Origin: Acetobacteraceae bacterium
GTDB taxonomy: Bacteria; Pseudomonadota; Alphaproteobacteria; Acetobacterales; Acetobacteraceae
DNA: 30,928 nt
Reading direction: 5' to 3'
NCBI GenBank assembly: GCA_035486135.1
Contig: DATHNI010000007.1
Location: 1-30,928 of the forward strand
The notes below the pieces were generated by a model that did no database searches, had not been told where the DNA came from, and saw only the letters and a list, made by a program, of their open reading frames with translations. Shown here piece by piece: positions 4,763 through 26,895 of this stretch. Position numbers and translations under genes: made by a program. The first letter of the stretch is position 1. Every line of letters starts with the position of its first letter.

Positions 4763-4823
4763 ATCCAATAGCAAGCGCCCGAAAGACTGACTCTCAATCT
4801 GATCGCACCTACCGCGCCTCGTA

Positions 4824-4911
4824 TCGTGGCCGGCGAAGGCCGGCCACCCACGACTTTCCCTTGTTGCACGCGGCAAAGTCGTGGATGGCCGGCCTTCGCC
4901 GGCCATGACAC
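4824..4911. repeat. MITE-like hairpin element (family 'GTCATGGCCGG..hairpin..CCGGCCATGAC'), copy A. The terminal inverted repeats are ~33 bp, and each arm contains its own GGCCGGC-GAA-GCCGGCC hairpin.
   Basis: Inverted repeats read directly. Related copies occur at 15850-15942 and 22029-22107, plus a short relative at 9103-9143. Confidence 0.75.
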
Positions 4912-4965
4912 GAGGGGCGCATGCCACCTTGGCCGTACGTCAGTGCTTCCGCCGGTTCGTATAAA

Positions 4966-8736: not shown

Positions 8737-9057
8737 TCACTCCCCGCCGTCCAGCGCCGCCTCCACCGCCCGCACCGCCGCCAGCGGCACCGCGCCCCGC
8801 CCGACCACCTGGCCGCCGACGCAGGCCAACCACCCCGCCCCGTCCGGCGGCTCGGCCGGCCGCAGCTCGACCACCTTGGCGTCGGCGTCCAGTGCCACCG
8901 CCTGGAACCGCCGCCACCCCGTGCATAAAGGTCCCTGAACGCGAACGACGCGGGCGATGGCCTCGCCCGCGTCGTCTAACCCGATCCACTCCAGGGTGCG
9001 GGGAACCCCGGCACCCTCCTCACGCCGACCCCGCGTCCATCGGAGGCGGGGCTGCAT
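8737..9057 (-). CDS. Hypothetical protein (106 aa) downstream of the EF-G gene
   Basis: Open frame whose C-terminal two-thirds is GC3-rich. No family is recognised, and the N-terminal codons are atypical, so the start is uncertain. Confidence 0.25.
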   Translation of the reverse strand: MQPRLRWTRGRREEGAGVPRTLEWIGLDDAGEAIARVVRVQGPLCTGWRRFQAVALDADAKVVELRPAEPPDGAGWLACVGGQVVGRGAVPLAAVRAVEAALDGGE

Positions 9058-9102
9058 CCTAATCGCACTCCATCAGGCGCACTCCGTGGCCACAGCCCCG
9101 GC

Positions 9103-9143
9103 GTCATGCCCGTCCCCGGGCTTGACCCGGGGACGGCAATGAC
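9103..9143. terminator. Strong hairpin (GTCATGCCCGTCCCCGGG-CTTGA-CCCGGGGACGGCAATGAC) downstream of the EF-G gene
   Basis: An 11-18-bp stem with a CTTGA loop. It is related to the GTCATG..CTTGA..CATGAC repeat family and has no U-tract, so it may act as a repeat-derived rather than classical intrinsic terminator. Confidence 0.45.
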
Positions 9144-9158
9144 ACGGAACAGCTACCC

Positions 9159-11246
9159 TCATGCACTCTTGGCCATGATCTCGTCCGCGATGTTCCGCGG
9201 CACCGGATCGTAGTGGTGGAACTGCATGGTGAACGACGCGCGCCCCTTGGTCATGCTGCGAATATCGGAAATATATCCGAACATTTCCTTAAGGGGAACA
9301 TGCGCCCGGACGATCACCGTGGACCCGGAGCTCTCCTGGTTCTGGATCATCCCACGGCGGCGGTTCAGGTCGCCCACCACGTCACCCACGTGATCCTGCG
9401 GCGTGGTCACCTCCACGTCCATGATCGGCTCCAGGATGATCGGGCTGGCCTTCTTCATCCCGTCGCGGAAACACGCCTTGGCGGCGATCTCGAACGCCAG
9501 CGCAGACGAGTCGACGTCGTGGTACTTGCCGTCGATCAGGGTGTATTTGAAGTCCACCGTCGGGAAGCCGGCCAGCACGCCGGTATCCGCCTGGACCCTG
9601 ATCCCCTTCTCCACCGCCGGGATGTACTCCTTCGGCACCGAGCCGCCGATCACCTTGTTCTCGAACACCACGCCGCCGTTCCGCTCCAGCGGCTCGAACA
9701 GGATCTTCACCTCGGCATACTGGCCGGAGCCGCCGGTCTGCTTCTTGTGTGTGTAGGTTTCCGTGTGCGGCTTGGTAATCGTCTCGCGATACGCCACCTG
9801 CGGCGCGCCGATATTCGCATCGACGCCGTACTCACGGCGCAGCCGGTCGATGATGATCTCGAGGTGCAGTTCGCCCATGCCGGACAGGATCGTCTCCCCC
9901 GTCTCCTGGTCGGTGCGCAGCCGCAGCGACGGGTCCTCGCCGGCCAGCTTCTGCAGGCCGAGCGACATCTTCTCCACCGCTTCCTTGGTGCGCGGCTCGA
10001 CCGAGATGTCGATCACCGGCACCGGGAAGGCCATGCGCTCCAGCACCACCGGATCCTGCTGGGACGCCAGCGTGTCGCCCGTGCCGGTGTCCTTCAGACC
10101 GACGAAGGCAGCGATGTCGCCGGCATGCACTTCCTTGATCTCGGCGCGCTTGTCGGCGTGCATCTGGAACATCCGGCCGATGCGCTCGCGATGCTCGCGG
10201 GTGGTGTTCATCACCGTGTCACCCGACTTCAGCGTGCCGGCATAGACGCGCACGAAGGTCAGCGTGCCGTACTTGTCGTTGATGATCTTGAACGCCAGGC
10301 CGGCGAACGGAGCGTCCGGATCGGCCTTGATGCGCCGGCGGTCGGAATGCTCGCCATCCTCCTCGCCTTCCGCCGCGGCGACGCTGATGCCGGGCACGTC
10401 GATCGGCGACGGCAGGTAGTCGATCACCGCATCCAACAGCGGCTGCACGCCTTTGTTCTTGAACGCCGTGCCGCACAGCACCGGGCGGAACGCGCCGGAG
10501 ATCGTGCCGGTCTTGATGCCGCGCCGCAGGGTCTCGGGCTTGACGTCGCCGTGCTCGAAATATTCTTCCATGCCCGCATCGTCGACCGACAGCGCGGTGT
10601 CCAGCAGAAGCTGCCGGTATTCCTTCGCTTGCTCCTCCAGGTCCGCGGGGATGGGCTCGATATGGAAGCTCGCGCCCAGTTCGCTGCCGTCCCAGATCAC
10701 CGCATGCATCTCGATCAGGTCCACCACGCCGATGAACTTGTCCTCGATGCCGATCGGCAGTTGCAGCGGCAACGCAACGATGTCCAGCTTCTCCTTCAAC
10801 GTGCTGAACGCACGGAAGAAGTCCGCGCCGGTGCGGTCCAGCTTGTTGATGAAGATGATGCGCGGCACGTTGTAGCGGTCGGCCAGGCGCCAGTTGGTCT
10901 CCGACTGAGGCTGCACGCCGGCGACGCCCTCGATGATGAAGATCGCGCCGTCCAGCACGCGCAGGCTGCGGTTCACCTCGATGTTGAAATCGATGTGGCC
11001 GGGCGTGTCGATGATGTTGATGCGGTGGTCCTTCCACTCGCACGTCACCGCCGCGGACGTGATCGTGATGCCGCGCTCCCGCTCCTGCTCCATGTAGTCG
11101 GTCGTGGTGTTGCCGTCGTGCACCTCGCCGATCCGGTGGGACATTCCGGTGTAGTACAGAATGCGCTCGGTCGTCGTGGTCTTGCCGGCATCGATGTGCG
11201 CGGTGATGCCAATATTGCGGATTCTGTCGAGCGGCGTCGCGGGCAC
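9159..11246 (-). CDS. fusA: Elongation factor G paralog (EF-G2-like). It stands alone and is not in an str operon.
   Basis: [38 protein letters not shown], the [31 protein letters not shown] block and a full C-terminal domain IV/V. It lacks the EF-G1 insertion after the first G-domain switch (TCEWKDH instead of TAFWSGMAKQYEPH). The start is called at GTG(11246) because of the perfect AGGAGG 6 nt upstream; the tracked ATG at 11402 would add 50 non-homologous residues. Confidence 0.93.
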
Positions 11247-11254
11247 GGTGGAAC

Positions 11255-11260
11255 CTCCTA
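11255..11260 (-). promoter_or_regulatory. Shine-Dalgarno AGGAGG for the EF-G paralog
   Basis: The minus strand reads TTAGGAGGTTCCACCGTG. The GTG then encodes [14 protein letters not shown], aligned with EF-G N-termini. Confidence 0.6.
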
Positions 11261-11556
11261 AAGCAGCACCGGGCGCGTGATCCTGTGCGGATCCCCGGGA
11301 AGCATCCCGGCGCGCCCGTGTCCTGGTCCGGCCGAGATGGTGCCCCGCGAAACTGGCAAGCGGGGGCCCCAACCGGCTATGTCTGGGCGTGAAATGCGGC
11401 AATCAGGCCCGTTTTGCAAGTGCGAAATGGCGCCGCATGGGACACATGCACGCGCCGCCGTGCCTCCGCCGTCCCATCACCCTCCCCTGCGGCGTCCCCT
11501 GCGGCGTTCACTCTTTGTCACTGTCGGACACGCTGACTAGGGCTAGCTTCCGCGCC

Positions 11557-12861
11557 ATGGATCCACGCACCGCACAAGCGCTGATCCGCTTCGGCCTGGG
11601 TCGCCGAGGCGAGGAACCCATCCCGTCCGACCCGGCCGCCTGGTTGAACGACCAGTTGCGCCAGCCCGACCCCACCCGCATCGACCCGCCGCCGAGCACG
11701 GTCCGGGGCCTGGAGGCATTGCGCTTCGACCGCCAAAACAAGCCGCCGCCCGACCAGCGAACGGTGCGTCCGCTGTTCCAGGCAGAGGCCCGCGCCGAGC
11801 TGGAAAACGCCCTGACCACCCCAGCCCCGTTCCGCGAGCGCCTGGTGCGGTTCTGGACCAACCACTTCACCGTCTCGGTGCGCGGTGGCACGGCCGCCGT
11901 GGCCGGCGCGTTCGTGGAGGAGGCGATCCGCCCCAACGTCACCGCCCGCTTCGAGACCATGCTGCTGGCGGTGATGCACCACCCCGCCATGCTGATCTAC
12001 CTGAACAACGCCCAATCGGTCGGACCGGACAGCCTCGCCGGCCAGCGCAGTCATCGCGGCCTGAACGAGAACCTCGCCCGTGAGTGCATGGAGCTGCACA
12101 CGGTCAGCCCGGCCGCCGGTTACACCCAGGCGGACGTGACCAACTTCGCGAAGATCCTGACCGGCTGGTCGATCGACCTGCGCTCGGACCCGCCCGGCTT
12201 CCGCTTCCGCCCCGCGGCGCACGAGCCGGGCGAGCAGGTCGTGATGGGCCGCCGCTTCCCACCCGGCGAGGAGGGGGGCATCGCCGTCCTGCGGTTCCTG
12301 GCCAATCACCCATCCACGCACCACTTCCTGGCCACCAAGCTGGCGCGCCACTTCGTCGCCGACGACCCGCCGCCCGAGGCGGTGCGTCCTATCGAGGCGG
12401 CCTTGCGCGACACGCGCGGGAACCTCGGTGCCGCGGCCGCATCGCTGATCACGCTGGAGGCCGCCTGGCAGCCCGGGGCGAAACTGCGCGACCCGCAGGA
12501 TTACGTCATCGCCTGCATGCGCGCGCTGGACCTGCCGCCGGAGCAACGGGCCGGCATGAACCTGCCCGGGATCGTCGGCAGCCTCGGCCAGCCGTTCTGG
12601 AACGCACCACAGCCCAATGGCTGGCCGGACCGCGCCAGCGACTGGGCCGCGCCCGAGGCCATGATGCGCCGCATCGACTGGGCGTATGGCGTATCCGGCC
12701 GCGTGGCGGGGCCGCAAAACGGGCGCGATGCCGCGGAACTCGCCGAGGCGACGCTCGGGCCGCTGCTATCCGCCGACACCTTGCAGGCGGTGCACCGCGC
12801 CGGCTCCCGCCGCGACGCCATGACCCTGCTGCTGACCGCTCCCGAATTCCAGAGGCGCTGA
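11557..12861 (+). CDS. DUF1800-family protein
   Basis: MDPRTAQALIRFGLG...FWTNHFTVS...MLIYLNNAQS...NENLARECMELHTVS is the typical DUF1800 architecture, and the gene sits immediately upstream of a DUF1501 gene, the classic conserved pair. The upstream part of the tracked ORF (from 11389) is non-homologous and GC3-poor. Confidence 0.8.
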   Translation: MDPRTAQALIRFGLGRRGEEPIPSDPAAWLNDQLRQPDPTRIDPPPSTVRGLEALRFDRQNKPPPDQRTVRPLFQAEARAELENALTTPAPFRERLVRFWTNHFTVSVRGGTAAVAGAFVEEAIRPNVTARFETMLLAVMHHPAMLIYLNNAQSVGPDSLAGQRSHRGLNENLARECMELHTVSPAAGYTQADVTNFAKILTGWSIDLRSDPPGFRFRPAAHEPGEQVVMGRRFPPGEEGGIAVLRFLANHPSTHHFLATKLARHFVADDPPPEAVRPIEAALRDTRGNLGAAAASLITLEAAWQPGAKLRDPQDYVIACMRALDLPPEQRAGMNLPGIVGSLGQPFWNAPQPNGWPDRASDWAAPEAMMRRIDWAYGVSGRVAGPQNGRDAAELAEATLGPLLSADTLQAVHRAGSRRDAMTLLLTAPEFQRR

Positions 12862-12863
12862 GC

Positions 12864-14207
12864 ATGAAGACCGTTCCCAGCGGCACGACAAACCAAAGAA
12901 TACCCCCCCTCCCCTTGAGGGAGGGGGCTGGGGGGAGGGATTGCGTGCGGCACGAACCCCTCCCCCCAGCCCCCTCCCTCAAGGGGAGGGGGAGTCTCTT
13001 GGCGCTTGGCCCAATCCTCACCCGCCGGTCCGCCCTCCTTGGGCTGACCGCCGCCTTCACGCTGGGCCGCGCCTCGCTGGCTGTTGCCGCGGCGCCGGGG
13101 GATAAGCGCCTGGTCGTGGTGATCCTGCGCGGCGCGCTGGACGGCATGGCGGCGGTAGTGCCGTACGGCGATCCGGGGCTGACGCCCCTGCGCGGCGAGT
13201 TGGTGCCGGCCGGCCCCGGCCAGGCGAACGGCTTGCTCGATCTCGGCGGGTTCTACGGCCTGCACCCGTCGCTGGCGAACCTCCACACCATGTTCAAGGC
13301 CGGCGAGCTGTTGCCGGTGCACGCCGTCGTCGGCCCGACCCGGGTGCGCAGCCATTTCGAGGCGCAGGACTGCCTGGAGAGCGGCGCCGACCACCGCATG
13401 ACCAGTGGCTGGCTGAACCGCGCCGTCGCCGCGCTGCCCAACGCCGCGCATGACCGGCCGGAGGGCGACGCCCTGGCGATCGGCGTCTCCGTGCCGCTGC
13501 TGCTGCGCGGACCGGCGACAGTAGGAAGCTGGGCGCCGCACGGCGTCATGGCGCCCCCGGCCGATCTCTATACGCAGATCGCCGCGCTGAGCAGCACCGA
13601 CCGGATCATCGGCCCGGCGGTCGCCGAGGGCCTGCAGGAGCGCGGCTTCACCGCCACCGTGATCGCTACCGACGACGATCCGGCACAGCCAGCCAAGGAC
13701 CGCTACGCCTTCCCGGCGCTGGCGCGGGCCGCCGGCGAGATGCTGCGCGCACCGGACGGGCCGCGCGTCGCGGCACTGGAGATCGGCGGCTGGGACACCC
13801 ACCAGGCGCAGGTGCCCCGGCTGGGCGGTGTGCTGAAACAGCTCGACGCCGGCTTGGCGGGCCTGAAGGACGGCCTGGGCCCGGCGTGGAGCCAAACCGC
13901 CGTGCTGGTCATGACCGAATTCGGCCGGACGGCCCGGGTGAACGGCACCAAGGGCACCGACCACGGTACCGCCACCGTGGCGTTCGTGCTGGGCGGCGCT
14001 GTGTTCGGTGGGCGTGTGGCCGGACAATGGCCCGGCCTGGGCCCGGGCAAGCTATACGAGAACCGCGACCTCGCGCCGACCACCGATCTGCGCTCGGTCG
14101 CCAAAGGATTGCTGGCCGGGCACCTGGGCGTCCCCGGCGGCGCGCTGACCGCCGTGTTCCCCGGCAGCGAAGCAGCGCAACCAACCCGCGGACTGCTCCG
14201 CACGTAG
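12864..14207 (+). CDS. DUF1501-family protein (sulfatase / alkaline-phosphatase-like fold) with a TAT signal. An alternative start at TTG(12999) lies just after the embedded REP-2 element.
   Basis: The TAT-like signal LTRRSALLGLTAAFTLGRASLAVAAA is followed by MTEFGRTARVNGTKGTDHGTATVAFVLGG, typical of DUF1501. ATG(12864) lies 3 nt after the DUF1800 stop, but nt 12903-12994 of that reading frame is a REP-2 palindrome translated as PPLPLREGAGGRDCVRHEPLPPAPSLKGRGS. Confidence 0.75.
   Translation: MKTVPSGTTNQRIPPLPLREGAGGRDCVRHEPLPPAPSLKGRGSLLALGPILTRRSALLGLTAAFTLGRASLAVAAAPGDKRLVVVILRGALDGMAAVVPYGDPGLTPLRGELVPAGPGQANGLLDLGGFYGLHPSLANLHTMFKAGELLPVHAVVGPTRVRSHFEAQDCLESGADHRMTSGWLNRAVAALPNAAHDRPEGDALAIGVSVPLLLRGPATVGSWAPHGVMAPPADLYTQIAALSSTDRIIGPAVAEGLQERGFTATVIATDDDPAQPAKDRYAFPALARAAGEMLRAPDGPRVAALEIGGWDTHQAQVPRLGGVLKQLDAGLAGLKDGLGPAWSQTAVLVMTEFGRTARVNGTKGTDHGTATVAFVLGGAVFGGRVAGQWPGLGPGKLYENRDLAPTTDLRSVAKGLLAGHLGVPGGALTAVFPGSEAAQPTRGLLRT
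12903..12994. repeat. REP-2 GC-rich palindromic element, copy A (CCCCCCTCCCCTTGAGGGAGGGGGCTGGGGGGAGGG ... CCCCTCCCCCCAGCCCCCTCCCTCAAGGGGAGGGGGAG). Each arm is itself a hairpin with a CTTGA/TCAAG loop, and it carries canonical G4 motifs on both strands.
   Basis: Read directly: GGGAGGGGGCTGGGGGGAGGG contains four G-tracts with 1-2 nt loops. Copy B is at 27109-27214 and a fragment at ~15303-15318. Confidence 0.85.
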
Positions 14208-14428: not shown

Positions 14429-15192
14429 TCACTGGCCGACGAGTGACAGCGGCAACTCCAGGCTGCCGCGCACGCTGAGCACCGATGCGATCTGCGCGCC
14501 GATGCGTTGGCCGAAGTCCATGAGCTCTTGCATTTGCTCGCCGGCCGGCGGTTGATCCCCGGCGTCCCAGTTCACGAACAAGGCGCCCAGCAGTTTGCCC
14601 TGCACGTCGGTCACCGGGCAGGCCAGCAGGCTGCTGGCGCCCAACAACTGCATGCGGGCCTGTAATTCAAAGTTGTGGACCTCCGGCATCGACGTCGATT
14701 GGCACCGGCCGGCCAACATCGCCGGAAGAAACTCGCTCCAGGTGGACAGCGGCTCGTTGACGACTGTCCCACCCGCGGCGCGGCCGGGCGCCGCAACCGC
14801 GTTGGTGACGTCGTAGCGCAACATGCTGGTGCCGGTGACGCCCGTGATGCCGTTATGGACCACGCCAAGCCGGACACGCGCCGCTCCCATCGAATGCAGC
14901 AGCGCGACCCCGAGCAATTCGTCGATCAGCTTGCCGCTCGTCGCGTACTGGTGCAACTCCGCCTGCATGAGGGCGGCCACGAGTTGCTGTTGCTCGGCCT
15001 CGCGATTCGCCCTGGTGTCGACAAACGCCACCCGCAGGCCCTTGGCCAAACTTCCTTCGTCGCGGATGTGCCAACCCAGGTACAGGCTGCACAGCATGGC
15101 AACGGTCAGCACGGGCTGGATCACCACGTTCACCAAAGGCTCACGCAGATTGCCGAGCATCGAAAGCAACATGTTGAGCAAGCGCAGGGCCT
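14429..15192 (-). CDS. GAF-domain protein with an N-terminal transmembrane helix; codon usage is atypical
   Basis: After the hydrophobic VVIQPVLTVAMLCSLYLGW segment comes a ~150-aa GAF-like region. Start candidates are GTG(15192), with GGAG 8 nt upstream, or ATG(15162). The extension upstream to 15403 is rich in rare codons and is probably non-coding. Confidence 0.55.
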
Positions 15193-15595
15193 CGACAATC
15201 ACAAGTCTTACTCCGTTGATGTGGGCCAGTGGGATCGGACAAAGGCGGTCTGACGCATGCCCGGCGAGCGCGGGCCAGCGAGTCAGTTGCTGCTTGGTAA
15301 ATCCGGGTCTCCCCTTGAGGGAGCCACACGTCCTTGTTCGCGGCGACGTCTGCCGTTTCAGCCCGAGCGTGTTGGTCGCCGCCCGATGGTCAGCGCGCCA
15401 CAATGCCGAGGCAGCGCCAGACGTCAGGACGCTTGGCGGCGTGTGAGGCTGTTCTCCCGCCCGGATGCGCGGCGTGAGCCAGGAATGGCGCAGCGACTGA
15501 ACTCTCTGGCGACAGCAACTACTGGGCGCAATACCGCCGTTGACAGCCGCGGTCTAGTCAGTCCTAGGATTATTGTCAAGACAAATCGTATATAT

Positions 15596-15609
15596 GGAAT
15601 AAGTATTCC
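15596..15609. promoter_or_regulatory. Perfect palindrome GGAATAAGTATTCC inside the most AT-rich island of the window (15571-15607); a TTGACA lies at 15540-15545
   Basis: Read directly. It sits in a ~1-kb apparently non-coding gap between the GAF gene and the PEPC-like gene. Confidence 0.25.
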
Positions 15610-15849
15610 TATAGCCCTGCGGAGCGCGAAGCAACCGGCTGGATTGATCGCTGTCCGTATCGGAAACGCGTTCTTCCCGCAACCATTGCAGCCAGGCCAA
15701 TTCGTGCCGCTCGCGACAAGCGCGAAACGGCGTGTGAGGGTGCCTCCAGCCGGAGCGAAGCGAAGCCTGGTTGTCCATACCACGCCGAAAGTCCGCGTTA
15801 AGGGGCCGGAGGCAGATAACTGCTTCGACCAGCCGCGCCGCAAAGCCCT

Positions 15850-15942
15850 GTGTCATGGCCGGGCTTGGCCCAAGTACCCACGTCTTCTATTGCCGCCAGC
15901 AGCGAAGTCGTGGGTGGCCGGGCCAAGCCCGGCCATGACACA
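15850..15942. repeat. MITE-like hairpin element, copy B (TGTGTCATGGCCGGGCTTGGCCC ... GGCCGGGCCAAGCCCGGCCATGACACA)
   Basis: The terminal inverted repeats are related to copy A (4824-4911) and copy C (22029-22107). Confidence 0.75.
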
Positions 15943-16180
15943 GGGAGCTTTGACCCGCCCCAATTGACTCGATTGTTCCCGAATGGACCCTGATGCGTGC
16001 CGGCCCGATCACCCTCACCCGCCACTTCGTGGCGCGTCGATCCACTTCGCGGCTCAACCACGTCCAAGGCGGAAGAGGTTTCCTTGGGCAGACGGTGAAA
16101 AATTAGGCTCTGGACGCGCCCAATGCAGGCAAACCACAAACATTCTTGCTGCGTTGCACAAACGGTAGCAGGATCACCCT

Positions 16181-18979
16181 ATGGCCGACATGCCCACCGA
16201 CCCTGTCGCCGTGCTGGCCCAGGACCTGCTGGAGCTGACCGCGCACCTGGGCGCTCGCGGCGACCAGGATCCGTTCGGCAATCCCGTGCTGCTGGTGGCG
16301 CTGGCGATCAGCCGGCGGATGGATGCCGGCGGCCTCGACGACGCGGCCATCGACGGGCTGATCCGCCACCTGCGCGACGCAGCCTTCGCCGATCGCGCCC
16401 ACCGCCTGGCCGCCTATGTCGGCGGGGTGAACATGGCAGCGAACCAGGCCGTGCTGCACGGCCTCGCCCAACACCTGCTGCGGCCCGACCCGAACGACAG
16501 CCCGGTGCGCTGGGCGGAATACCGAGCCCTGGTGGAACGCCCGCGCTTCGCCGCCGTATTCACCGCGCATCCCACCTTCGCCCTGCCGTATCCCGTCGGA
16601 AAGGCCCTTGCCGAGGCCGCCTGCGGCCGAGCCTCGCCCGGCTTTGCCTCACACCGCCCGCCGCCCATCACCCTGGCCGAGGAATTCGAGCAAGCCGGAG
16701 ACGCGATCGCCCGCGGCCGTGACGCGATCGACCATTTCAACGCGGCATTGCTGTCCGTCGCCCGGTCCGCCTGGCCGGATCGCTGGACCGAGCTGAATCC
16801 GCGCCCCGTCATCCTGTCCACCTGGGTCGGCTACGACACCGACGGACGCACCGATATCGGCTGGTGGGACACCCTGCGGCTGCGGCTGGACATGAAGCAG
16901 CGCCAGCTCGCCCGGCTGCACTCCCAGCTCGCCGGCCTGGCCGTGCCCGTCCCGCTGCTGCATCGCGTCACCGAGGCGATGGACGCCGTCGCGGAGCAAC
17001 TTGCCGCCTGTCCCAACGGCCAGGACCCGCAGCGCGTCTCTGAGTTCGCGCATGCCCTGGTCGGGCGCCGGGACGCGGCGATGACCTCGCCGGAACCGCT
17101 GCTGCCGCTGTTCCGCGACGCGATCGAGGCGGCCCCCAACGACGCGACAAGGCAGGATTTGTGCGTGGCGCGCGCCGGGCTGGTGTCGCACGGCCTGGCG
17201 CTGGCGCACACCCACACGCGGTTGAACGCGGCACAGATCCATAACGTGGTGCGGCAGCGGCTGGGCATCGTCGATCCGCCGGAAGACCCCGCGCATCGCC
17301 GCGCGCTGTTCTCGGCGATCAACACCGCGCTCGACACAGTGCAGCCGGTGCCGGTGGATTTCGGCGCGCTGATCGCCGAGCAAGCGTCGGCGGCACGGCT
17401 GATGATGACGGTGGCGCAGATCCTGAAGCACGTGGATGGCTCCGCCCCGGTGCGCTTCCTGATCGCCGAGACCGAAACCGGCTACACATTGCTCGCCGCA
17501 CTGTGGCTGGCGAAGCTGTTCGGCATCGCCGACCGCATCGAGATCTCCCCGCTGTTCGAGACGGCGGAGGCGCTGGACCAGGGCGCAACGGTGCTGGAGG
17601 AAGCGCTGCGCAGCCCGCACTACCGGGCGTATCTGCGCGACACCGGGAAGCTGGCGCTGCAGTTCGGCTATTCGGATTCCGGCCGCTATGTGGGGCAGCT
17701 TGCCGCCAGCTACCTGGTGGAGCGACTGCGCCTGAAGATCGCCGCCATGCTGGAACGCCACAACATCAGCGGCGTCGAAGTGATCCTGTTCGACACGCAT
17801 GGCGAGAGCATCGGCCGCGGCGCGCATCCGGGCTCGCTGGCGGACCGGCTGAAATACCTGTCGCCGACCGCCTCGCGCCAGGCGCTGTTCCGCGCCGGTC
17901 TGGCGGTGCGCGAGGAAAGCGCGTTCCAGGGCCTCGACGGGTATTTGCTGTTCGGCACGCCGGAGTTGGCTCTGGCCACGATCACCCGCATCGCGGAACA
18001 AACCTATCATCCGGCGGCGGGGCCGATCGAGGACCCGGTCTATGCCGATCCGGATTTCGCCGCCGACTTCTTCGCCACCGTCCGCGCCGGCATGGAGGCA
18101 CTGGTCGATGACGTCGGCTATGGCTCATTGTTGGGCGCGTTCGGTCCGGCGCTGATCGATCGCACCGGGTCGCGTCCGTCGGCACGGCAATCGGACGGCA
18201 TGACCGGTGCGGCGCGCATCCGCCACCCACGCGAGCTCCGCGCCATTCCGAACAATGCGATCCTCCAGCAACTCGGCTGGTGCGCCAACACGCTGCAAGG
18301 GATCGGCGCGGCGGCATCGCGCCATCCGGAAACTTTCGCCGAGATGCATGCGAAGAGCAGACGGTTCCATCGGGCGATGGAACTGGCGACGCACGGACTG
18401 GCGCATTCGGATATCGACGTGCTGCGCGCGGTGATCGCGACGCTCGATCCCGGCACCTGGCTGGACCGCGCCGCGCATACCGAGCGGGTTGGGCGGCGCG
18501 AGGCGCTGGTGTCGGTGGCGCGCGCGCTGGAGCGGCTGGATATCTGGGCGGCGGCGCAGTCGATGTTCCGTCGCATCCAGGCGGACCACCTGGCGCTGCG
18601 CGTCGCGTGGCCGGATGCGCCGCGCATGGCGACGCGCGAGGTGCTGCTGCATGCGCTGCGGCTGGCTCTGGTGCATCGCATCTGGCTGCTGTCCACCGAC
18701 ATCTCCGATTTCTCGCCACGCCACGGCGTGACGCGTCCGGTGCTGGAGGCAGCGATCCTGCGGCTGGATATCGAGGCGGTGCTGGACCTGCTGGCGGAAA
18801 TCTTCCCCGCCGCGCCGGACCCCGCGGCGGAGTGCGACTACGCCGAACCGGCCCCGCCGCGCGGCTCCGGCGCTTATGTGCGCGAGCACGCGGAAATCTT
18901 CGCGCCGATGCGGGCGCTGTTCGGCATGGTGCGGGAGATCGCCACGGCGGTCACGCACGAGGTGGGAGCGTTCGGGTAG
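16181..18979 (+). CDS. Phosphoenolpyruvate carboxylase family protein, highly divergent
   Basis: Ordered PEPC-like motifs, compared with E. coli Ppc from memory: VFTAHPTF (VLTAHPTE), LSTWVGYDTDGRTD (FTSWMGGDRDGNP), ISPLFETAEAL (VAPLFETLDDL), LQFGYSDSGRYVGQLAASY (MIGYSDSAKDAGVMAASW), FDTHGESIGRGAHPGS (FHGRGGSIGRGGAP), LRAIPNN (LRAIPW), and a C-terminal Gly (..GAFG versus ..NTG). The motif order and spacing resemble the canonical ~880-930-aa enzyme. Confidence 0.65.
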   Translation: MADMPTDPVAVLAQDLLELTAHLGARGDQDPFGNPVLLVALAISRRMDAGGLDDAAIDGLIRHLRDAAFADRAHRLAAYVGGVNMAANQAVLHGLAQHLLRPDPNDSPVRWAEYRALVERPRFAAVFTAHPTFALPYPVGKALAEAACGRASPGFASHRPPPITLAEEFEQAGDAIARGRDAIDHFNAALLSVARSAWPDRWTELNPRPVILSTWVGYDTDGRTDIGWWDTLRLRLDMKQRQLARLHSQLAGLAVPVPLLHRVTEAMDAVAEQLAACPNGQDPQRVSEFAHALVGRRDAAMTSPEPLLPLFRDAIEAAPNDATRQDLCVARAGLVSHGLALAHTHTRLNAAQIHNVVRQRLGIVDPPEDPAHRRALFSAINTALDTVQPVPVDFGALIAEQASAARLMMTVAQILKHVDGSAPVRFLIAETETGYTLLAALWLAKLFGIADRIEISPLFETAEALDQGATVLEEALRSPHYRAYLRDTGKLALQFGYSDSGRYVGQLAASYLVERLRLKIAAMLERHNISGVEVILFDTHGESIGRGAHPGSLADRLKYLSPTASRQALFRAGLAVREESAFQGLDGYLLFGTPELALATITRIAEQTYHPAAGPIEDPVYADPDFAADFFATVRAGMEALVDDVGYGSLLGAFGPALIDRTGSRPSARQSDGMTGAARIRHPRELRAIPNNAILQQLGWCANTLQGIGAAASRHPETFAEMHAKSRRFHRAMELATHGLAHSDIDVLRAVIATLDPGTWLDRAAHTERVGRREALVSVARALERLDIWAAAQSMFRRIQADHLALRVAWPDAPRMATREVLLHALRLALVHRIWLLSTDISDFSPRHGVTRPVLEAAILRLDIEAVLDLLAEIFPAAPDPAAECDYAEPAPPRGSGAYVREHAEIFAPMRALFGMVREIATAVTHEVGAFG

Positions 18980-19049
18980 GGCGGGACGACTCGCCCTGCG
19001 CTGCACGGTGTGCTGGGATGCCGCAGCCGCAAAAGGACCGAGCGCCGCC

Positions 19050-19322
19050 ATGGCCGAGCATCCCCCGCGGCTTCCGCCGCCGCCGTTCTGGCGAACCCGA
19101 TACTATGACCAGGTAGTGGCGGCCCGTCCCGACCGGGCTCACATCCACGCGGCGGATGTCCTATATGCGATGGCGCGACCCGCCCATACCATGCAGCAAC
19201 CCGATGGGCAGTGGCGACACTGGGCGTGGATCGTGCGGCGCGGTCCGTGGTTGCGTGTCGTGATTGAGCCTGACCGGGAGACGGTGCACAACGCATTCTG
19301 GGACCGAGGGTTCAAGCCGTGA
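19050..19322 (+). CDS. DUF4258-like small protein, putative toxin partner of the DUF2283 protein
   Basis: 90 aa. WLRVVIEPDRETVHNAFWDRGF resembles the DUF4258 C-terminus. It overlaps the downstream gene by 4 nt (GTGA). Confidence 0.5.
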   Translation: MAEHPPRLPPPPFWRTRYYDQVVAARPDRAHIHAADVLYAMARPAHTMQQPDGQWRHWAWIVRRGPWLRVVIEPDRETVHNAFWDRGFKP

Positions 19323-19570
19323 ACGTCGAGCCGAGCATTCGCTACTACCCTGAGACCGACAGCATGGCGATCGAACTGCGGTCCTGGCCAGGCTCTGCTG
19401 GTGGGCATCCGGAGATGGTTGGCGGCGAAGATGCGGGACCCGACCTCGTGATCCACTATGCCGCTGACGGGCAGCCGTGGCTCTGGGAAATCGAGCACGC
19501 TTCGACCCACCCAGAGCATATCGCCGCCGCGCTGGAACAAATCCGCCGGCTGGGTGCGCTGGCGGCGTAG
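19319..19570 (+). CDS. DUF2283-family small protein, putative antitoxin
   Basis: IRYYPETDSMAIEL is the hallmark (Y)-D-x-E-x-D-x-L start of DUF2283. A GTG start overlaps the upstream stop. Confidence 0.6.
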   Translation: MNVEPSIRYYPETDSMAIELRSWPGSAGGHPEMVGGEDAGPDLVIHYAADGQPWLWEIEHASTHPEHIAAALEQIRRLGALAA

Positions 19571-21968: not shown

Positions 21969-22028
21969 GGCGATTTATACCAACAGTCCGACAGACAGCC
22001 TCTCGAACTGTCGCACCAGCCGCCGCAA

Positions 22029-22107
22029 TCGTCATGGCCGGGCTTGACCCGGCCATCTATCGCGGCACCAGCGCTGCATAGACAGCAGGGTCAGGCCGGC
22101 CATGACC
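22029..22107. repeat. MITE-like hairpin element, copy C (CGTCATGGCCGGGCTTGACCCGGCCATC ... CAGGGTCAGGCCGGCCATGACCG)
   Basis: Read directly. It lies between the convergent CmcJ-like and vapC genes. Confidence 0.7.
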
Positions 22108-22138
22108 GTGGGAGCGGGCGCTGCCGGTACGGGAAACT

Positions 22139-23143: not shown

Positions 23144-23725
23144 CTACGCCTTTGGGACGCTCACCCCGATCATGTCACCCTCGCGCACGATCGATGCCAG
23201 CCTGGCCTCATCCCATCCTTCCGTCCCGGCCGGGCGCAGCGGCAGCACCATCCAGCGATAATCCGCGGTCGAATCGACCACGCGCAGCCTGACGCTATCG
23301 GGCACCACCGTGCCCCACTCCTCCGCCAGCAACCCACGCGGATCGCGCACCGCACGCGCGCGATATCCTGCCGACTTGTACCAGAACGGCGGATAGCCCA
23401 GCACCGCGCGCGGATAGCAACTGCACAGCGTGCAGACCACAAGGTGATGCACCTCCGCGCTGTTCTCCAGCACACCCAGCGGAGGCATGCCGCGCATCGG
23501 AATGCCGAGCTCCTCGGCCGCCTTCGACCCGTCCTCCAGCAGCCGGGCACGATACGCCGGATCGGTCCACGCCTTCGCCACCATGCGCGCGCCCTGACCC
23601 GGACTGGCGCTGTCGGTGCTGGCGATGCGTTCGGCGATCTCCGCCGGCGACGCGATGCCCTTCGCCGCCAGCACGCTGCGCAACGCAGTCAGCAGCTTTT
23701 GGCCGTCGATTTCCGCGAGGGTCAT
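23144..23725 (-). CDS. nthA: Nitrile hydratase alpha subunit, cobalt-type
   Basis: VVCTLCSCYP metal-binding motif (CTLCSCY is the Co-type form; Fe-type is CSLCSCT). Flanking blocks AKAWTDPAYRARLLEDG, PPFWYKSAGYRARAVRDPRGLL and RWMVLPLRPAGTEGWDEARLASIVREGDMIGV are colinear with Co-NHase alpha subunits as I recall them. There is an ATGA overlap with the upstream ORF, and an alternative ATG lies at 23740. Confidence 0.9.
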   Translation of the reverse strand: MTLAEIDGQKLLTALRSVLAAKGIASPAEIAERIASTDSASPGQGARMVAKAWTDPAYRARLLEDGSKAAEELGIPMRGMPPLGVLENSAEVHHLVVCTLCSCYPRAVLGYPPFWYKSAGYRARAVRDPRGLLAEEWGTVVPDSVRLRVVDSTADYRWMVLPLRPAGTEGWDEARLASIVREGDMIGVSVPKA

Positions 23726-24003
23726 AGTGGTTCCAACCAATGTTCGAAGATTTCCACCAGCAACTCGTCACCCGCGCGGCCTTCGTGCCAGACCTCGGGC
23801 TGGTCGAAGCGCACATGATACAACGCGCGGGTCGGCGCAGGGCGTGCGAAGGCCAGGTCTTCCGGATTGGGAAAGGCGCCAAGCCGCCGCACCACCGTGC
23901 CCTGCATGCCGCGCACGTAGTGCGGCGTGCGGACATGCGCCGGGCCGCGCGTCTCCGGCCAGTCGTTCTTCACCCGCACGATGGCGCCGGGTTCGAACAT
24001 CAT
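23722..24003 (-). CDS. Nitrile hydratase beta subunit, C-terminal (SH3-like) domain only, as a separate polypeptide
   Basis: MMFEPGAIVRVKNDWPETRGPAHVRTPHYVRGMQGTVVRRLGAF...ALYHVRFDQPEVWHEGRAGDELLVEIFEHWLEP aligns with the C-terminal half of NHase beta (..FKPGDRVR...GHTRxPRYVRGKTGTVV...LYTVRF..ELWG..VDLWEPYLE). There are 4-nt ATGA overlaps on both sides. Confidence 0.8.
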   Translation of the reverse strand: MMFEPGAIVRVKNDWPETRGPAHVRTPHYVRGMQGTVVRRLGAFPNPEDLAFARPAPTRALYHVRFDQPEVWHEGRAGDELLVEIFEHWLEPL

Positions 24004-24308
24004 TCCGCCTCCAGCGCGGAGCGCAGCTCAGCCTCGGTGATGACGCCCTTCTGCAGCAGGATGTCGGTGATCGAGCGGATCCAACGGCGGTAGTAGCTCA
24101 GCCGGTGGTACTCGGCTTCGGGAATGGATTCGATGCCTCGCCGCAACTCGTCCACCGTCATGATCTGCTTCGCGCCGAGGATGCCGCGGATCGCGTCCAC
24201 TTGCTTGTCAAAGTCGGTGAGGCCGTGCGGCGCGGTGTCCACCGCCTCGCACATGAATTTCGCGGCGCCGCCCAGATCGTGGTGCGCGCGGGGCGTGTCC
24301 TTGTCCAT
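24000..24308 (-). CDS. Nitrile hydratase beta subunit, N-terminal helical domain only, as a separate polypeptide
   Basis: MDKDTPRAHHDLGG...EAEYHRLSYYRRWIRSITDILLQKGVITEAEL aligns with the NHase beta N-terminus (MNGVHDLGG...PAEYLxxSYYExWL..LLxEKGxIT). It ends exactly at the domain boundary; the ~40-50-aa inter-domain linker of ordinary beta subunits is absent. The longer tracked start at 24440 overlaps the upstream hydrolase gene. Confidence 0.8.
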   Translation of the reverse strand: MDKDTPRAHHDLGGAAKFMCEAVDTAPHGLTDFDKQVDAIRGILGAKQIMTVDELRRGIESIPEAEYHRLSYYRRWIRSITDILLQKGVITEAELRSALEAE

Positions 24309-24375
24309 GACGACGACGATAGCGCAGCCGGCGGGCGGTGCCAAAGCCCGCGACCTGCCGCCGGCATACCCAGCG

Positions 24376-25221
24376 TCAGCGCGAACCCGCCCGCGGTCCC
24401 GGCAACGGCGGTGTGTGCGCGGGGCGGGCGCGCGAGGCACCGGGGGGTGGGAATGCGGCCTGCACGAAGCGCACGACGGTATCGAGCGTTGCCTGCTTCG
24501 CCTCCAGATGCGGGGCGTGACGTGCCCCCGGCATCACCAGCGTTTCCAGCGGCACCCGCGCGTGCTGCTGCAGGACGTCCAACTGCGCCGGGGTACCATA
24601 CGGATCATCGGCGCCTTGCAGCGCGAGGATCGGCACGTCGATGCCCGCAACCTCCGCGGTGATGTCGAACGAACGAAACCCCGGATGCAGCCACGAATCG
24701 TTCCATCCCCGGAATGCCACATCCACATTCCGATGATAGCGTGCCAGCCGCTCGCGCAACGCGCCCTGTTCATACTCGGCGCGGATCTGGCGGATGCTGG
24801 CAATGTTCAGGTCTTCCACGAAGAAATGCGCGGCGATCAGCACGACGCCGCGCAGCCGCCGGTCGCGCGCGTCGCCCGCATAGACCGCGGCGATCGAGCC
24901 GCCGTCGGAGTGGCCGACCAGGATCGCCTCGCGAATGCCGGCGGCGTCCAGCACGCGCGGCAGCACGTCGCGCGCTTCGTCCTGCATGTAGGTCAACGGC
25001 CAGGGCAGCGGCTTCGAGTCAGACTGGCCGTAACCGAACCGCGAGTACGCGAACACGCCGCAGCCGGTGGCTGCCGCGAGCAGATCGGGAACGTCGCGCC
25101 ATAACGCGATGCAGCCCAGGCCTTCATGCAGCAGGACAAGCGTGGGCGCTTCGGATGGAGGCGGGCCCCACCAGGCGGTTTCGAGCTGGCGATCATCAAG
25201 AAGCATGGCACCGGGGTGCAT
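24376..25221 (-). CDS. Alpha/beta-fold hydrolase
   Basis: The nucleophile elbow GHSDGG (GxSxG) follows the LVLLHEGLG oxyanion region, giving the ~280-aa alpha/beta hydrolase layout. It lies between the CoA ligase and the NHase genes on the same strand, with short gaps. Confidence 0.8.
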   Translation of the reverse strand: MHPGAMLLDDRQLETAWWGPPPSEAPTLVLLHEGLGCIALWRDVPDLLAAATGCGVFAYSRFGYGQSDSKPLPWPLTYMQDEARDVLPRVLDAAGIREAILVGHSDGGSIAAVYAGDARDRRLRGVVLIAAHFFVEDLNIASIRQIRAEYEQGALRERLARYHRNVDVAFRGWNDSWLHPGFRSFDITAEVAGIDVPILALQGADDPYGTPAQLDVLQQHARVPLETLVMPGARHAPHLEAKQATLDTVVRFVQAAFPPPGASRARPAHTPPLPGPRAGSR

Positions 25222-25230
25222 GCGGCACCC

Positions 25231-26895
25231 TCACCCGCCGCTGCGCGGCGCCCCCCGGGTCGAGGGACCGGGGGCATGCCTATCCTGAAGCGAGAGGTTT
25301 TCTTCGCGCAGGCGGAAGCGCTGGATCTTGCCGGTGGCGGTCTTCGGCAAGCCATCGACGAACTCGATCCAGCGCGGATATTTCCACACGCCGATCCGTT
25401 CCTTCACATGCGCCTTCAAAAGTTCCTTCACCGTATCCGCGTCCTGTTGCTTCGCCGCCTCCTGCAGGATCACGAACGCCCTGGGCTTGGTCAGCCCGTC
25501 GCGATCCGTCGCACCCACCACCGCGGCCTCCAGCACCGCCGGGTGCGAGACCAAAGCTTCCTCGACCTCGAACGGCGAGACCCAGACGCCGCTCACCTTC
25601 AGCATCTCGTCGCTGCGGCCGCAGTAGCGGTAGTAGCCCTCGGCGTCGCGCGTGTAGGTGTCGCCGGTATGAGTCCATTCGCCGCGGAAGGTGCGGCGGG
25701 TCTTGTCCCGCTGGTGCCAATAGCCGTCGGCCGCCGACGGGCCGCGCACCACCAGTTCGCCCACCTCGCCATGCGGCACCGGGCGGCCATGCTCGTCCAG
25801 GACATGCGCCTCGTAGCCAGGCACCGGCTTGCCTGACGTGCCGTAGCGAATATCGTCGGGCCGGTTCGAAACAAAGATGTGCAGCATCTCGGTCGAGCCG
25901 ATCCCGTCCAGGATGTGCACGCCCACCATGTTGAACCAGCGCTGGCCCACCGCCTCCGGCAACGCCTCGCCGGCGGAGATGCAGCGGCGCAGGCGGTCCG
26001 ACCCGGCCTTGGGGCCGATCCGCGGATACGCCAGCAGCGCGGCGTACAGCGTCGGCACGCCGCCGAAAATCGAGGGGTTGTGGCTCTGCATCACCCCTAG
26101 CACCGCGTCCGGGGTCGGCCGGTCGGGCAGCAGCACGGCGGACGCGCCGACCGACATCGGGAAGGTCAGGCTGTTGCCCAGGCCATAGGCGTGGAACGCC
26201 TTGGCGGCGGAGAACATCAGGTCGTCACGTCGGATGCCCAGCACCTGCGCGCCGTAGGTATCCGCGGTGTGGCGCAGGCTGGCGTGGACATGGCGCACGC
26301 CCTTCGGCGCGCCGGTCGAGCCGGAGGAATACAACCACAACGCGATTTCATCCGGCGAGGCGGGCGCCGTTGGCGTGTCCGCGTCGCCGGTGGCGAGGAA
26401 GTCGGTCAGGCTGATCGTACGCAAATCCCCCTGCTCAGGCCCGGAGCCAGACTCAGGCGGCGCCGGCGTCGTGCCGTCCGGGTGGGCAACGATGATGCGG
26501 CGCAGCGCCGGCAGGCTGTGCAGCACCGGCAGCAGCGGCGCGAGCAATGGGGCCGAGATGACGATGGCCTCGGCGCGGCTGTCGGCCAGGATGTAGCCGG
26601 CCACCTCGTGCGTCAGCAGCGTATTGATCGGGACGGGCACGACGCCGGCCCGCAAGGCGCCCCAGAACGCGAGGGGGAAATCCACGGTGTCGAGCAACAG
26701 CAGCGCGATGCGCCGTTCGCGGCCGATGCCGGCGGCGCCCAGCGCACCGGCGAAGCGGTGGGTATCGGCTGCCAGTCCCGCGTAGGTCAGCGTGCGCCAC
26801 GGGTCGAGGAAGGCCGTCGCGTCGCCGCGCCCCTCGCGCAGGTGGCGATCGAGGAACCAATCGACCGCGTTGCCGTCCACCGCCTCAGCCGCCAT
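25231..26895 (-). CDS. Benzoate-CoA ligase family AMP-dependent synthetase (aromatic acid-CoA ligase)
   Basis: LYSSGSTGAPKGV AMP-binding motif, YGTSGKP and TGD motifs, and a C-terminal PKTATGKIQR. The N-terminus NAVDWFLDRHLREGRGDATAFLD resembles benzoate/4-hydroxybenzoate-CoA ligase N-termini. There is a 10-nt gap to the hydrolase gene. Confidence 0.9.
   Translation of the reverse strand: MAAEAVDGNAVDWFLDRHLREGRGDATAFLDPWRTLTYAGLAADTHRFAGALGAAGIGRERRIALLLLDTVDFPLAFWGALRAGVVPVPINTLLTHEVAGYILADSRAEAIVISAPLLAPLLPVLHSLPALRRIIVAHPDGTTPAPPESGSGPEQGDLRTISLTDFLATGDADTPTAPASPDEIALWLYSSGSTGAPKGVRHVHASLRHTADTYGAQVLGIRRDDLMFSAAKAFHAYGLGNSLTFPMSVGASAVLLPDRPTPDAVLGVMQSHNPSIFGGVPTLYAALLAYPRIGPKAGSDRLRRCISAGEALPEAVGQRWFNMVGVHILDGIGSTEMLHIFVSNRPDDIRYGTSGKPVPGYEAHVLDEHGRPVPHGEVGELVVRGPSAADGYWHQRDKTRRTFRGEWTHTGDTYTRDAEGYYRYCGRSDEMLKVSGVWVSPFEVEEALVSHPAVLEAAVVGATDRDGLTKPRAFVILQEAAKQQDADTVKELLKAHVKERIGVWKYPRWIEFVDGLPKTATGKIQRFRLREENLSLQDRHAPGPSTRGAPRSGG

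Follow-up and report, generated by a model that had tools for sequence, protein, structure and literature searches.

The 30,928-nucleotide stretch of DNA analysed here, referred to in its full length as the window, comes from a metagenome-assembled genome (MAG) of an Acetobacteraceae bacterium (GenBank assembly GCA_035486135.1, contig DATHNI010000007.1, positions 1 to 30,928 of the forward strand). The metagenomic contig corresponds to ENA records ERZ26871208 (contig_4583) and ERZ27253562. The window carries a gene for a 932-residue protein of the phosphoenolpyruvate (PEP) carboxylase (PEPC) family. The open reading frame (ORF) of this gene has a GC content of 0.74/0.49/0.87 at its three codon positions (GC1/GC2/GC3), which is typical for real genes in a window of ~68% GC. 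An initial annotation, made from the sequence alone, had taken the product for a true but extremely divergent PEPC with substituted residues in its catalytic loop, and had proposed that it could be a neofunctionalised paralog rather than the housekeeping enzyme Ppc. The protein belongs to a large clade which, from its sequences, appears to be a deep-branching sister lineage of the bacterial/plant-type PEPCs, and whose Acetobacteraceae form is the one annotated as ppc. We consider it probable that this clade functions as a PEP carboxylase, of a type that has not been described so far.

Active-site motifs and overall fold

The reference for the motif comparison was E. coli Ppc, taken from NC_000913.3. 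Residues were mapped with HMMER (against 1fiy) and with hhalign, and their frequencies were counted over 103 full-length representatives of the clade. Two alignments were used throughout, one of 101 clade sequences (A1) and one of four canonical PEPCs (A2). All of the motif strings quoted in the initial annotation are present in the ORF, namely TAHPTF, TWVGYDTDGRTD, SPLFET, FGYSDSGRY, FDTHGESIGRGAHPGS (aa 537-552) and GAFG. The counterparts in the E. coli enzyme are TAHPTE, SWMGGDRDGNP, PLFET, GYSDSAK, FHGRGGSIGRGGAP and the C-terminal ...MRNTG. The positions of these and other features are collected in Table 1.

Table 1. Features of the PEPC-like gene and of the DNA upstream of it. Positions are those of the window; fractions are counts among the 103 representatives.
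Feature	Position	Strand	Remarks
Divergent PEPC-family gene, 932 aa	16181..18979, stop codon included	+	Intact ATG-started ORF
TAHPTF, aa 128-133	16562..16579	+	H130 is the His138 equivalent, H in 100/103; Glu141 replaced by F133 in 100/103
TWVGYDTDGRTD, aa 214-225, counterpart of SWMGGDRDGNP	16820..16855	+	Asn256 replaced by R223 in 102/103
HTHTRLNA, aa 343-350	17207..17230	+	R347 is the Arg396 equivalent, invariant in A1; Asp394 replaced by H345
PLFET, aa 457-461 (SPLFET 456-461)	17549..17563	+	E460 is the equivalent of metal ligand Glu506, 103/103
GYSDSGR, aa 496-502 (FGYSDSGRY 495-503)	17666..17686	+	D499 is the equivalent of metal ligand Asp543, invariant
FDTHGESIGRGAHP, aa 537-550, clade version of the FHGRGGSIGRGGAP loop	17789..17830	+	Residue-by-residue HMMER alignment to 1fiy
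GSRPSARQ, aa 663-670, counterpart of GSR699PAKRR	18167..18190	+	R665 is the Arg699 equivalent
LRAIPNNAILQQ, aa 686-697, counterpart of LR713AIPWIFAWTQ	18236..18271	+	R687 is the Arg713 equivalent, invariant
GAFG, C-terminus, aa 929-932	18965..18976	+	Terminal Gly in 103/103
AGGA, likely ribosome-binding site (putative function)	16170..16173	+	7 nt 5' of the ATG, from reading the sequence
Intergenic region, ~978 bp	15203..16180	.	No gene called in the same-species contigs L001 and L002
Palindromic element, 100 nt, with 42-nt arms	15846..15945	.	Folding energy -86.3 kcal/mol, z = -12.1
Hypothetical gene, 257 aa, divergent to the PEPC-like gene	14429-15203	-	

Arg396, Arg699 and Arg713 are the ligands of the PEP phosphate in E. 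coli PEPC, and His138 and Arg587 are essential in the PEPC reaction. The roles of His138, His579, Arg581 and Arg587 are said to have been worked out by Kai et al. in 1999 and 2003, by Matsumura et al. in 2002 and by Terada and Izui in 1991. Of the seven residues that the initial annotation had singled out for mapping, only His579 and Arg581 are replaced; His138, Arg396, Arg587, Arg699 and Arg713 are kept. As judged from the alignments, the clade has thus retained the two metal ligands, the His138 equivalent and the four conserved arginines (396, 587, 699 and 713). Of the latter, the equivalents of Arg396, Arg699 and Arg713 (R347, R665 and R687) are either invariant or conserved to 99%, and Arg587 is kept as R546 of the catalytic loop. 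The TWVGYDTDGRTD loop likewise has W215, D219, D221 and G222 in common with the canonical enzymes.

The substitutions in the catalytic loop are no less regular. His579 is replaced by D538, with Asp in 56 and Asn in 45 of the sequences (D/N in 101/103), Arg581 by H540 (101/103) and Gly583 by E542 (101/103). The canonical Lys546 has become R502 in all 103, so that the clade motif G-[FY]-S-D-[AS]-G-R takes the place of GYSDSxK. Further along the chain, L695 takes the place of Trp721, and G699 that of the Arg in ..QNR725. Since the substitutions in the catalytic loop are fixed across a large clade, they are not the product of a misalignment, and the initial annotation had read them correctly. The Phe that follows TAHPT, where Glu or Gln would be called for, would presumably also make the window protein fail the PROSITE pattern PS00781.

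The signature of the clade can be written as T-A-H-P-T-F; W-V-G-[YF]-D-x-D-G-R-x-D; H-x-R-x-N-x-x-Q; P-L-F-E-T; G-[FY]-S-D-[AS]-G-R; F-[DN]-T-H-G-E-S-x-G-R-G-[AG]-H-P; G-S-R-x-x-x-R; R-A-I-P-[HNQ]-N-x-x-L-Q-Q; and a terminal Gly. It is near-invariant, although the 103 sequences are only 28-67% identical to the window protein; as far as alignments can tell, strong purifying selection on the clade-specific residues of the active-site loops is shown. Set against each other, A1 and A2 have 41 conserved positions at which the two lineages share the same residue, including the TAHPT motif, W-G-D-DG, R396, PLFET, G-SD, F..G.S..RG..P, GSR...R and RAIP. A further 12 positions are conserved within each lineage but differ between the two. 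These are clustered in the active-site loops, and E141F, N256R, D394H, K546R, G580T, R581H and G583E are among the differences, together with H579D/N.

The inhibitor site has to be read with more caution. Aspartate and malate bind E. coli PEPC at a site made of Lys773, Arg832 and Asn881. The aspartate-binding residues of the E. coli enzyme do not appear to be kept in the clade: Asn881 corresponds to A930 (Ala in 85/103) by counting from the C-terminus only, the last ~140 residues being poorly aligned by hhalign, and the column of Lys773 is variable in an hhalign alignment that is weak over the same ~140 residues. With these residues apparently lost, one would expect the enzyme to be regulated otherwise than E. 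coli Ppc.

How far the window protein stands from the canonical enzymes can be seen in the profile searches. It passes the PEPcase family model Pfam PF00311 at 64.5 bits (gathering cutoff 22.4) with its central part only, aa 378-551 being matched to positions 446-623 of the 919 in the profile. It fails NF000584, the NCBIfam equivalog model for PEPC, on which its 73.3 bits fall tenfold short of the cutoff of 815. Six further members of the clade score 68-87 bits on NF000584, compared with 1234 for the Azospirillum enzyme, 754 for the canonical Ppc of Methylobacterium bullatum and 667 for the serine-cycle Ppc of Paracoccus. It is worth noting that the last two, which are grouped here with the serine-cycle type, are also under the cutoff, yet they match the model over their full length. 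The distribution of scores is bimodal and therefore places the window protein outside the cluster of ordinary proteobacterial Ppc, in line with the initial annotation.

Pairwise comparisons give a similar account. With phmmer against the sequences of the PDB, the best match was E. coli PEPC (E 1.6e-11, aa 405-554), and the maize and Arabidopsis enzymes were weaker. BLASTP aligned 202 aa of the window protein to E. coli Ppc at 28% identity, whereas canonical Ppcs can be aligned to the same enzyme across 830-920 aa at 30-36% identity. Overall, the identity of the window protein to canonical enzymes is ~14-20% (18-20% by hhalign and 14-17% by Foldseek).

The comparison of profiles, and of structures, extends the relationship to most of the chain. 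Aligned to E. coli Ppc by hhalign, A1 gave a probability of 99.2; aligned to A2, it gave a probability of 99.8 in local mode (E 5e-30, 651 columns, 19% identity) and of 100 in global mode (E 2e-44, 782 columns). The AlphaFold2 model built on A1 has a pLDDT of 95.4 and a pTM of 0.95, and its sole low-confidence loop is at aa 672-674. When this model was searched against the PDB with Foldseek, all of the top 50 matches were PEPCs, from maize, E. coli, Arabidopsis and Flaveria, and they covered the full-length fold (E 1e-22 to 1e-19, ~970-1050 aligned columns, TM 0.57-0.64, 14-17% identity). As modelled, then, the window protein is shown to have the complete PEPC fold. Taken with the PF00311 match and the identity of 15-20%, these full-length fold matches bear out its description as a genuine, if extremely divergent, member of the family.

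There is one reading that these data leave next to no room for, which is that the window protein is an ordinary proteobacterial housekeeping Ppc whose motifs had been misaligned. It is true that databases name the protein 'phosphoenolpyruvate carboxylase'. Against this, HMMER aligns FDTHGESIGRGAHP to FHGRGGSIGRGGAP residue by residue, the clade reaches 68-87 bits on NF000584 where canonical enzymes reach 667-1234, and the window protein is aligned to the E. coli enzyme over ~200 aa only, compared with 830-920 aa at 30-36% identity for the canonical ones. Loop alignment, BLASTP coverage and NF000584 scores together refute it.

Distribution and genomic context

The clade is large. A word-indexed protein search found 3407 relatives of the window protein, including one that is 98% identical, and an exhaustive search of 50%-identity representatives found at least 350 clusters at E <1e-30, with full-length matches down to 29% identity. 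Counted with one genome per species, at least 590 GTDB species carry a member. The closest relatives, 74-98% identical, are found in Rhodopila-like and other Acetobacteraceae MAGs. A search with the member from Brytella acorum identified the clade as the annotated PEPC of Gluconobacter oxydans, G. cerinus, G. morbifer, many Acetobacter species and Gluconacetobacter diazotrophicus PA1 5. Acidomonas, Neoasaia, Saccharibacter, Parasaccharibacter (Bombella) and Candidatus Kirkpatrickella are further carriers in which it bears this annotation; the last, with a contig of 2.2 Mb, is an example of the small-genome insect associates that carry the clade too. The scan of GTDB species adds Komagataeibacter xylinus, K. 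nataicola, Novacetimonas and Gluconacetobacter azotocaptans to the list.

Outside the Acetobacteraceae, members were found in Paraburkholderia fungorum, P. phosphatilytica and Burkholderia pyrrocinia, and their identity of ~64% suggests horizontal transfer. Other carriers are Methylopila, Flaviflagellibacter, Methylobacterium bullatum (50.6%), Phyllobacterium and Sphingobium (33.5%), and deltaproteobacterial MAGs. In M. bullatum, the divergent member (L088, ~9001-11847, in a housekeeping region) and a canonical Ppc (L092, 6797-9556) with the motifs TAHPTE, WIGGDRDGNP, GYSDSNK and RAIPWVFAWSQNR are found on one replicon, NZ_LR743510.1. Although labelled 'plasmid 1', this linear, unannotated record of 2.83 Mb carries housekeeping genes and is probably a piece of the chromosome.

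A distribution of this kind also bears on the idea that the protein is an inactive or decaying relic of a PEPC, a pseudoenzyme. One could point to its very low identity to active enzymes, and to the annotation of the copy in Acetobacter pasteurianus 386B as a pseudogene. The frame of 932 aa is intact and its composition is of the coding type, however; full-length orthologues exist in hundreds of species, the metal ligands and catalytic residues are invariant down to 28% identity, and the structure model is a very confident one. We regard a relic as extremely improbable.

The genes around the PEPC-like gene vary. All-against-all clustering of the ORFs of 83 loci, mostly from Acetobacteraceae, found no conserved gene neighbour, the top clusters being antisense shadow ORFs within the PEPC-like gene itself, and no common neighbour was found among five sampled contigs of more distant members. 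This appears to be a stand-alone gene with variable neighbours, as genes of central metabolism often are. In the most distant member sampled (P0250, 29% identity; L094, 1928-10967) it is flanked by a divergently transcribed gap gene on one side and, on the other, by a glk-edd-pgl-zwf cluster that includes a LacI-type regulator; by its gene content, this is a neighbourhood of central carbohydrate catabolism. In a subgroup of 1032-aa proteins, the gene adjoins one for a DctP-type binding protein.

A more elaborate arrangement is seen on the Burkholderia pyrrocinia plasmid NZ_CP150851.1 (L089, 1335-12852) and at two Paraburkholderia loci, L028 and L038 (930-10784), where the gene closes a long co-directional cluster. 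This begins with a LysR/Nac regulator and continues with BCCP, biotin carboxylase, PxpB, a PxpC-like carboxyltransferase, another BCCP, PxpA, SDR and, in Burkholderia only, an RraA-family gene, before the PEPC-like gene is reached. On the 3' side of the latter are a D-glycerate dehydrogenase and an amino-acid ABC transporter. In Paracoccus, the canonical serine-cycle ppc likewise has D-glycerate dehydrogenase directly beside it. The cluster may represent a dedicated pathway that was acquired together with the PEPC-like gene.

In the window itself, the 5' neighbours are the divergent hypothetical gene of Table 1 and, upstream of it, a DUF1800/DUF1501 pair. The 257-aa product of the hypothetical gene has no Pfam match, and L001 and L002, both of the same species, are the only contigs in which the gene was found beside the PEPC-like gene. 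On the 3' side are a DUF2283 gene, a GNAT acetyltransferase and a polysaccharide deacetylase. An ORF of 148 aa (18876-19322) precedes the DUF2283 gene (83 aa, 19319-19570); it overlaps the PEPC-like gene at the latter's 3' end, lacks a Pfam match and is uncalled in related contigs. The two may form a small module resembling a toxin-antitoxin pair, or the 148-aa ORF may be spurious. Within 9159-14207, an elongation factor G paralogue (a 747-aa ORF, called as 696 aa in L001) adjoins the DUF1800/DUF1501 pair. Over this interval, indels set the nanopore-derived contig L001 apart from the window, and its DUF1501 gene is called at 370 aa, shorter than the 447 aa of the window and of L002; these look like assembly frameshifts rather than biology. 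Farther downstream, at 23144-26895 on the reverse strand, is a nitrile hydratase gene cluster with an alpha subunit, a split beta subunit, an alpha/beta hydrolase and an AMP-binding enzyme similar to acyl-CoA synthetases; the N- and C-terminal domains of the beta subunit are separate gene calls in L001.

The initial annotation had also drawn attention to a ~1-kb non-coding stretch 5' of the gene, with repeats and an AT-rich palindrome, and both are indeed there. The length of 978 bp presumes that the divergent upstream gene starts as called in L002. The AT-rich stretch is at ~15560-15615 and has the palindrome GGAATA-AG-TATTCC. Within 15203-16180 there was no match to Rfam and no promoter or terminator consensus, and BLASTN matched the region only to the two same-species contigs among 90 fetched loci. 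The larger palindromic element has related copies in the window at 4813-4919 and 22013-22124, and its arms recur in the related MAG loci L018 and L063 at unrelated positions. The three intergenic palindromes of ~100 nt share the cores CATGGCCGG...CCGGCCATGAC and CCCACGAC, and they have the look of a REP/MITE-like repeat dispersed in this lineage. Conservation of the gap stops at the same species, and the palindrome belongs to a dispersed repeat; neither is informative about the PEPC-like gene. The upstream region is incidental to that gene and not part of a conserved locus.

The probable function of the clade

If the clade is a working PEPC, the predicted enzyme would bind Mg2+/Mn2+-PEP and carboxylate it with bicarbonate to yield oxaloacetate and phosphate. 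Its predicted role would be anaplerosis, with a route from PEP through oxaloacetate to pyruvate as a further possibility. The part of the pocket that is canonically built from His579, Arg581, Lys546 and Asn256 would in this enzyme be rebuilt from D/N538, H540, E542, R502, R223 and H345, and R223 could possibly supply the positive charge that was lost at Arg581.

The fold, the retained residues and the wide distribution speak for such an enzyme, and indirect support for the activity comes from the acetic acid bacteria, where the clade is the annotated PEPC. The genome of A. pasteurianus 386B lists a single PEPC gene, APA386B_587 (PMC3751514), and in the metabolic model of the same strain PEPC and malic enzyme are the only anaplerotic enzymes (PMC6915089). 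GOX0102 has been named as the ppc of G. oxydans (PMC6191907), and PEPC activity was assayed in extracts of Komagataeibacter (G. xylinus) (PMC4047042). By the published single-PEPC annotations, the clade behaves like the housekeeping enzyme in these bacteria, which goes against the idea of a paralog set apart from the housekeeping Ppc. The proposal of a special neofunctionalised paralog in the window genome is, as it stands, not supported; what survives of it is paralogy elsewhere, M. bullatum having both types. Benziman is said to have studied the carboxylation of PEP in A. xylinum in 1969. The PEPC of A. xylinum has been reported to be insensitive to acetyl-CoA, which would fit a working PEPC, as would the retention of the essential His138 and Arg587.

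There are several observations that weigh on the other side. The catalytic Gly-rich loop has lost both His579 and Arg581 to other residues and has gained an acidic one, E542, beside them. In M. bullatum a member of the clade co-occurs with a canonical Ppc, so that the divergent and canonical types are not simply interchangeable, and Burkholderia and Paraburkholderia presumably carry a canonical Ppc too. The A. pasteurianus 386B copy is a frameshifted pseudogene in one NCBI release (PMC6915089), and expression of GOX0102 in G. oxydans is low (PMC6191907), both of which indicate that the gene can be dispensable. Gene-level activity was found in the literature for no member of the clade, and the claim that the acetic acid bacteria have no second PEPC rests on published annotations.

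Some of these observations would fit a neofunctionalised enzyme with the PEPC fold, one that binds a metal-PEP-like substrate and uses the rebuilt pocket (D/N538, H540, E542, R223, H345, R502) for another second half-reaction. Examples would be an electrophile or acceptor other than bicarbonate-derived CO2, the hydrolysis of PEP, phosphoryl transfer, or chemistry on an oxaloacetate-like acid. The twelve conserved positions that differ between the lineages are grouped in the active-site loops, as one would expect of such an enzyme; the presence of a canonical Ppc in M. bullatum, the dedicated-pathway look of the co-directional cluster in Burkholderia and Paraburkholderia, and the NF000584 score at a tenth of the cutoff can be cited in the same sense. 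The acetic acid bacteria speak against it, with their annotated PEPC, the one PEPC gene of 386B and the activity in Komagataeibacter extracts, and so does the variable, stand-alone context in the 83 loci, which indicates no specialised pathway. The metal ligands, the residues that bind the PEP phosphate in E. coli PEPC, and the equivalents of His138 and Arg587 have all been kept. His579, moreover, was reportedly found by Terada et al. in 1991 not to be obligatory in E. coli PEPC. We consider a neofunctionalised enzyme unlikely. It is decidedly unlikely, in our view, that the rebuilding of the carboxyphosphate/bicarbonate half-site (H579D/N, R581H, G583E, N256R, D394H, K546R) marks a different reaction or mechanism, and so makes the clade something beyond a fifth sequence type of PEPC.

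Whichever way the function falls, a clade that is family-level in size and has an invariant active-site signature of its own is at present annotated plainly as 'phosphoenolpyruvate carboxylase', though the plant and haloarchaeal enzymes stand far closer to E. coli Ppc than this clade does. Should it be an active PEPC, as we think probable, Arg581 and His579 would be dispensable for the chemistry, and the clade would serve as a natural experiment on the catalysis of the carboxyphosphate step. In addition, it would offer a PEPC with non-canonical regulation for the engineering of Gluconobacter, Komagataeibacter and other hosts. If a different reaction is the true one, the 'ppc' annotation would be wrong in hundreds of Acetobacteraceae, Methylobacterium and Burkholderia genomes; and if the clade is not a PEPC, the source of oxaloacetate in acetic acid bacteria and the models of their central metabolism would need revision. 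For the window, the gene would be an ordinary central-metabolism gene of an Acetobacteraceae MAG rather than a curiosity of the locus.

Comparison with known PEPC types

A 2020 review of the PEP-pyruvate-oxaloacetate node recognizes four types of PEPC, the bacterial, the plant-type, the plant 'bacterial-type' and the archaeal-type, and has nothing that resembles the window clade (PMC8100219). A literature search for a described PEPC-like, atypical or divergent PEPC subfamily gave nothing relevant either. What appears to be new is thus the clade as a separate type of PEPC, which the literature searched does not describe as such; the fold and the family were already known.

The PEPC of archaeal type (atPEPC) is, like the window clade, a highly divergent lineage. 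It is an enzyme of 55-60 kDa and is without the canonical allosteric sites (PMC8100219). The window protein, in contrast, has 932 aa and the bacterial/plant-type architecture, and it had no match to the archaeal-type models PF14010 and TIGR02751 at E up to 1.

Closer to the alphaproteobacteria, a distinct 'non-regulated' Ppc1 clade has been described in serine-cycle methylotrophs such as Methylosinus trichosporium (Matsen et al. 2013, PMC3615186). The two have some features in common. The serine-cycle Ppc is also a divergent alphaproteobacterial PEPC with an altered inhibitor site (Asn881 to Ala), and it too can adjoin D-glycerate dehydrogenase, in Paracoccus as the window clade does in Burkholderia. 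Identity of the window clade with the serine-cycle 'non-regulated' Ppc was considered and rejected, the serine-cycle Ppc of Paracoccus aminovorans and the canonical Ppc of M. bullatum being both of the canonical kind. The former is encoded on plasmid II inside an sga-mtkA-mtkB-hprA-ppc-glyA cluster, and is 30% identical to E. coli Ppc over 831 aa; with the window protein it can be aligned over only 281 aa, at 27%. The serine-cycle enzymes, with 30% identity to E. coli Ppc across more than 830 aa, carry the canonical TAHPTE, WIGGDRDGNP, GYSDSNK and RAIPWVFAWSQNR, and that of Paracoccus also FFHGRGGS. On the sequences, the window clade is a lineage separate from the serine-cycle Ppc and much deeper.

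The likeness is broadest with the bacterial/plant-type PEPCs, as represented by E. coli Ppc (1FIY/1JQN) and the maize C4 enzyme (1JQO/5VYJ). The window protein is like them in size, in its full-length fold and in the order of the landmark motifs; alike, too, are the metal ligands, the equivalents of His138, Arg396, Arg587, Arg699 and Arg713, and the terminal Gly. It differs from them in an identity of 15-20%, a TM of ~0.6 and the tenfold shortfall on NF000584. Lys773 and Asn881 of the inhibitor site appear to have been lost in the clade, as far as a weak C-terminal mapping can be read. In the active site and around it, His579, Arg581, Lys546, Gly583, Asn256, Asp394, Glu141 and Trp721 of the bacterial/plant-type enzymes have been replaced by residues that are invariant in the clade.

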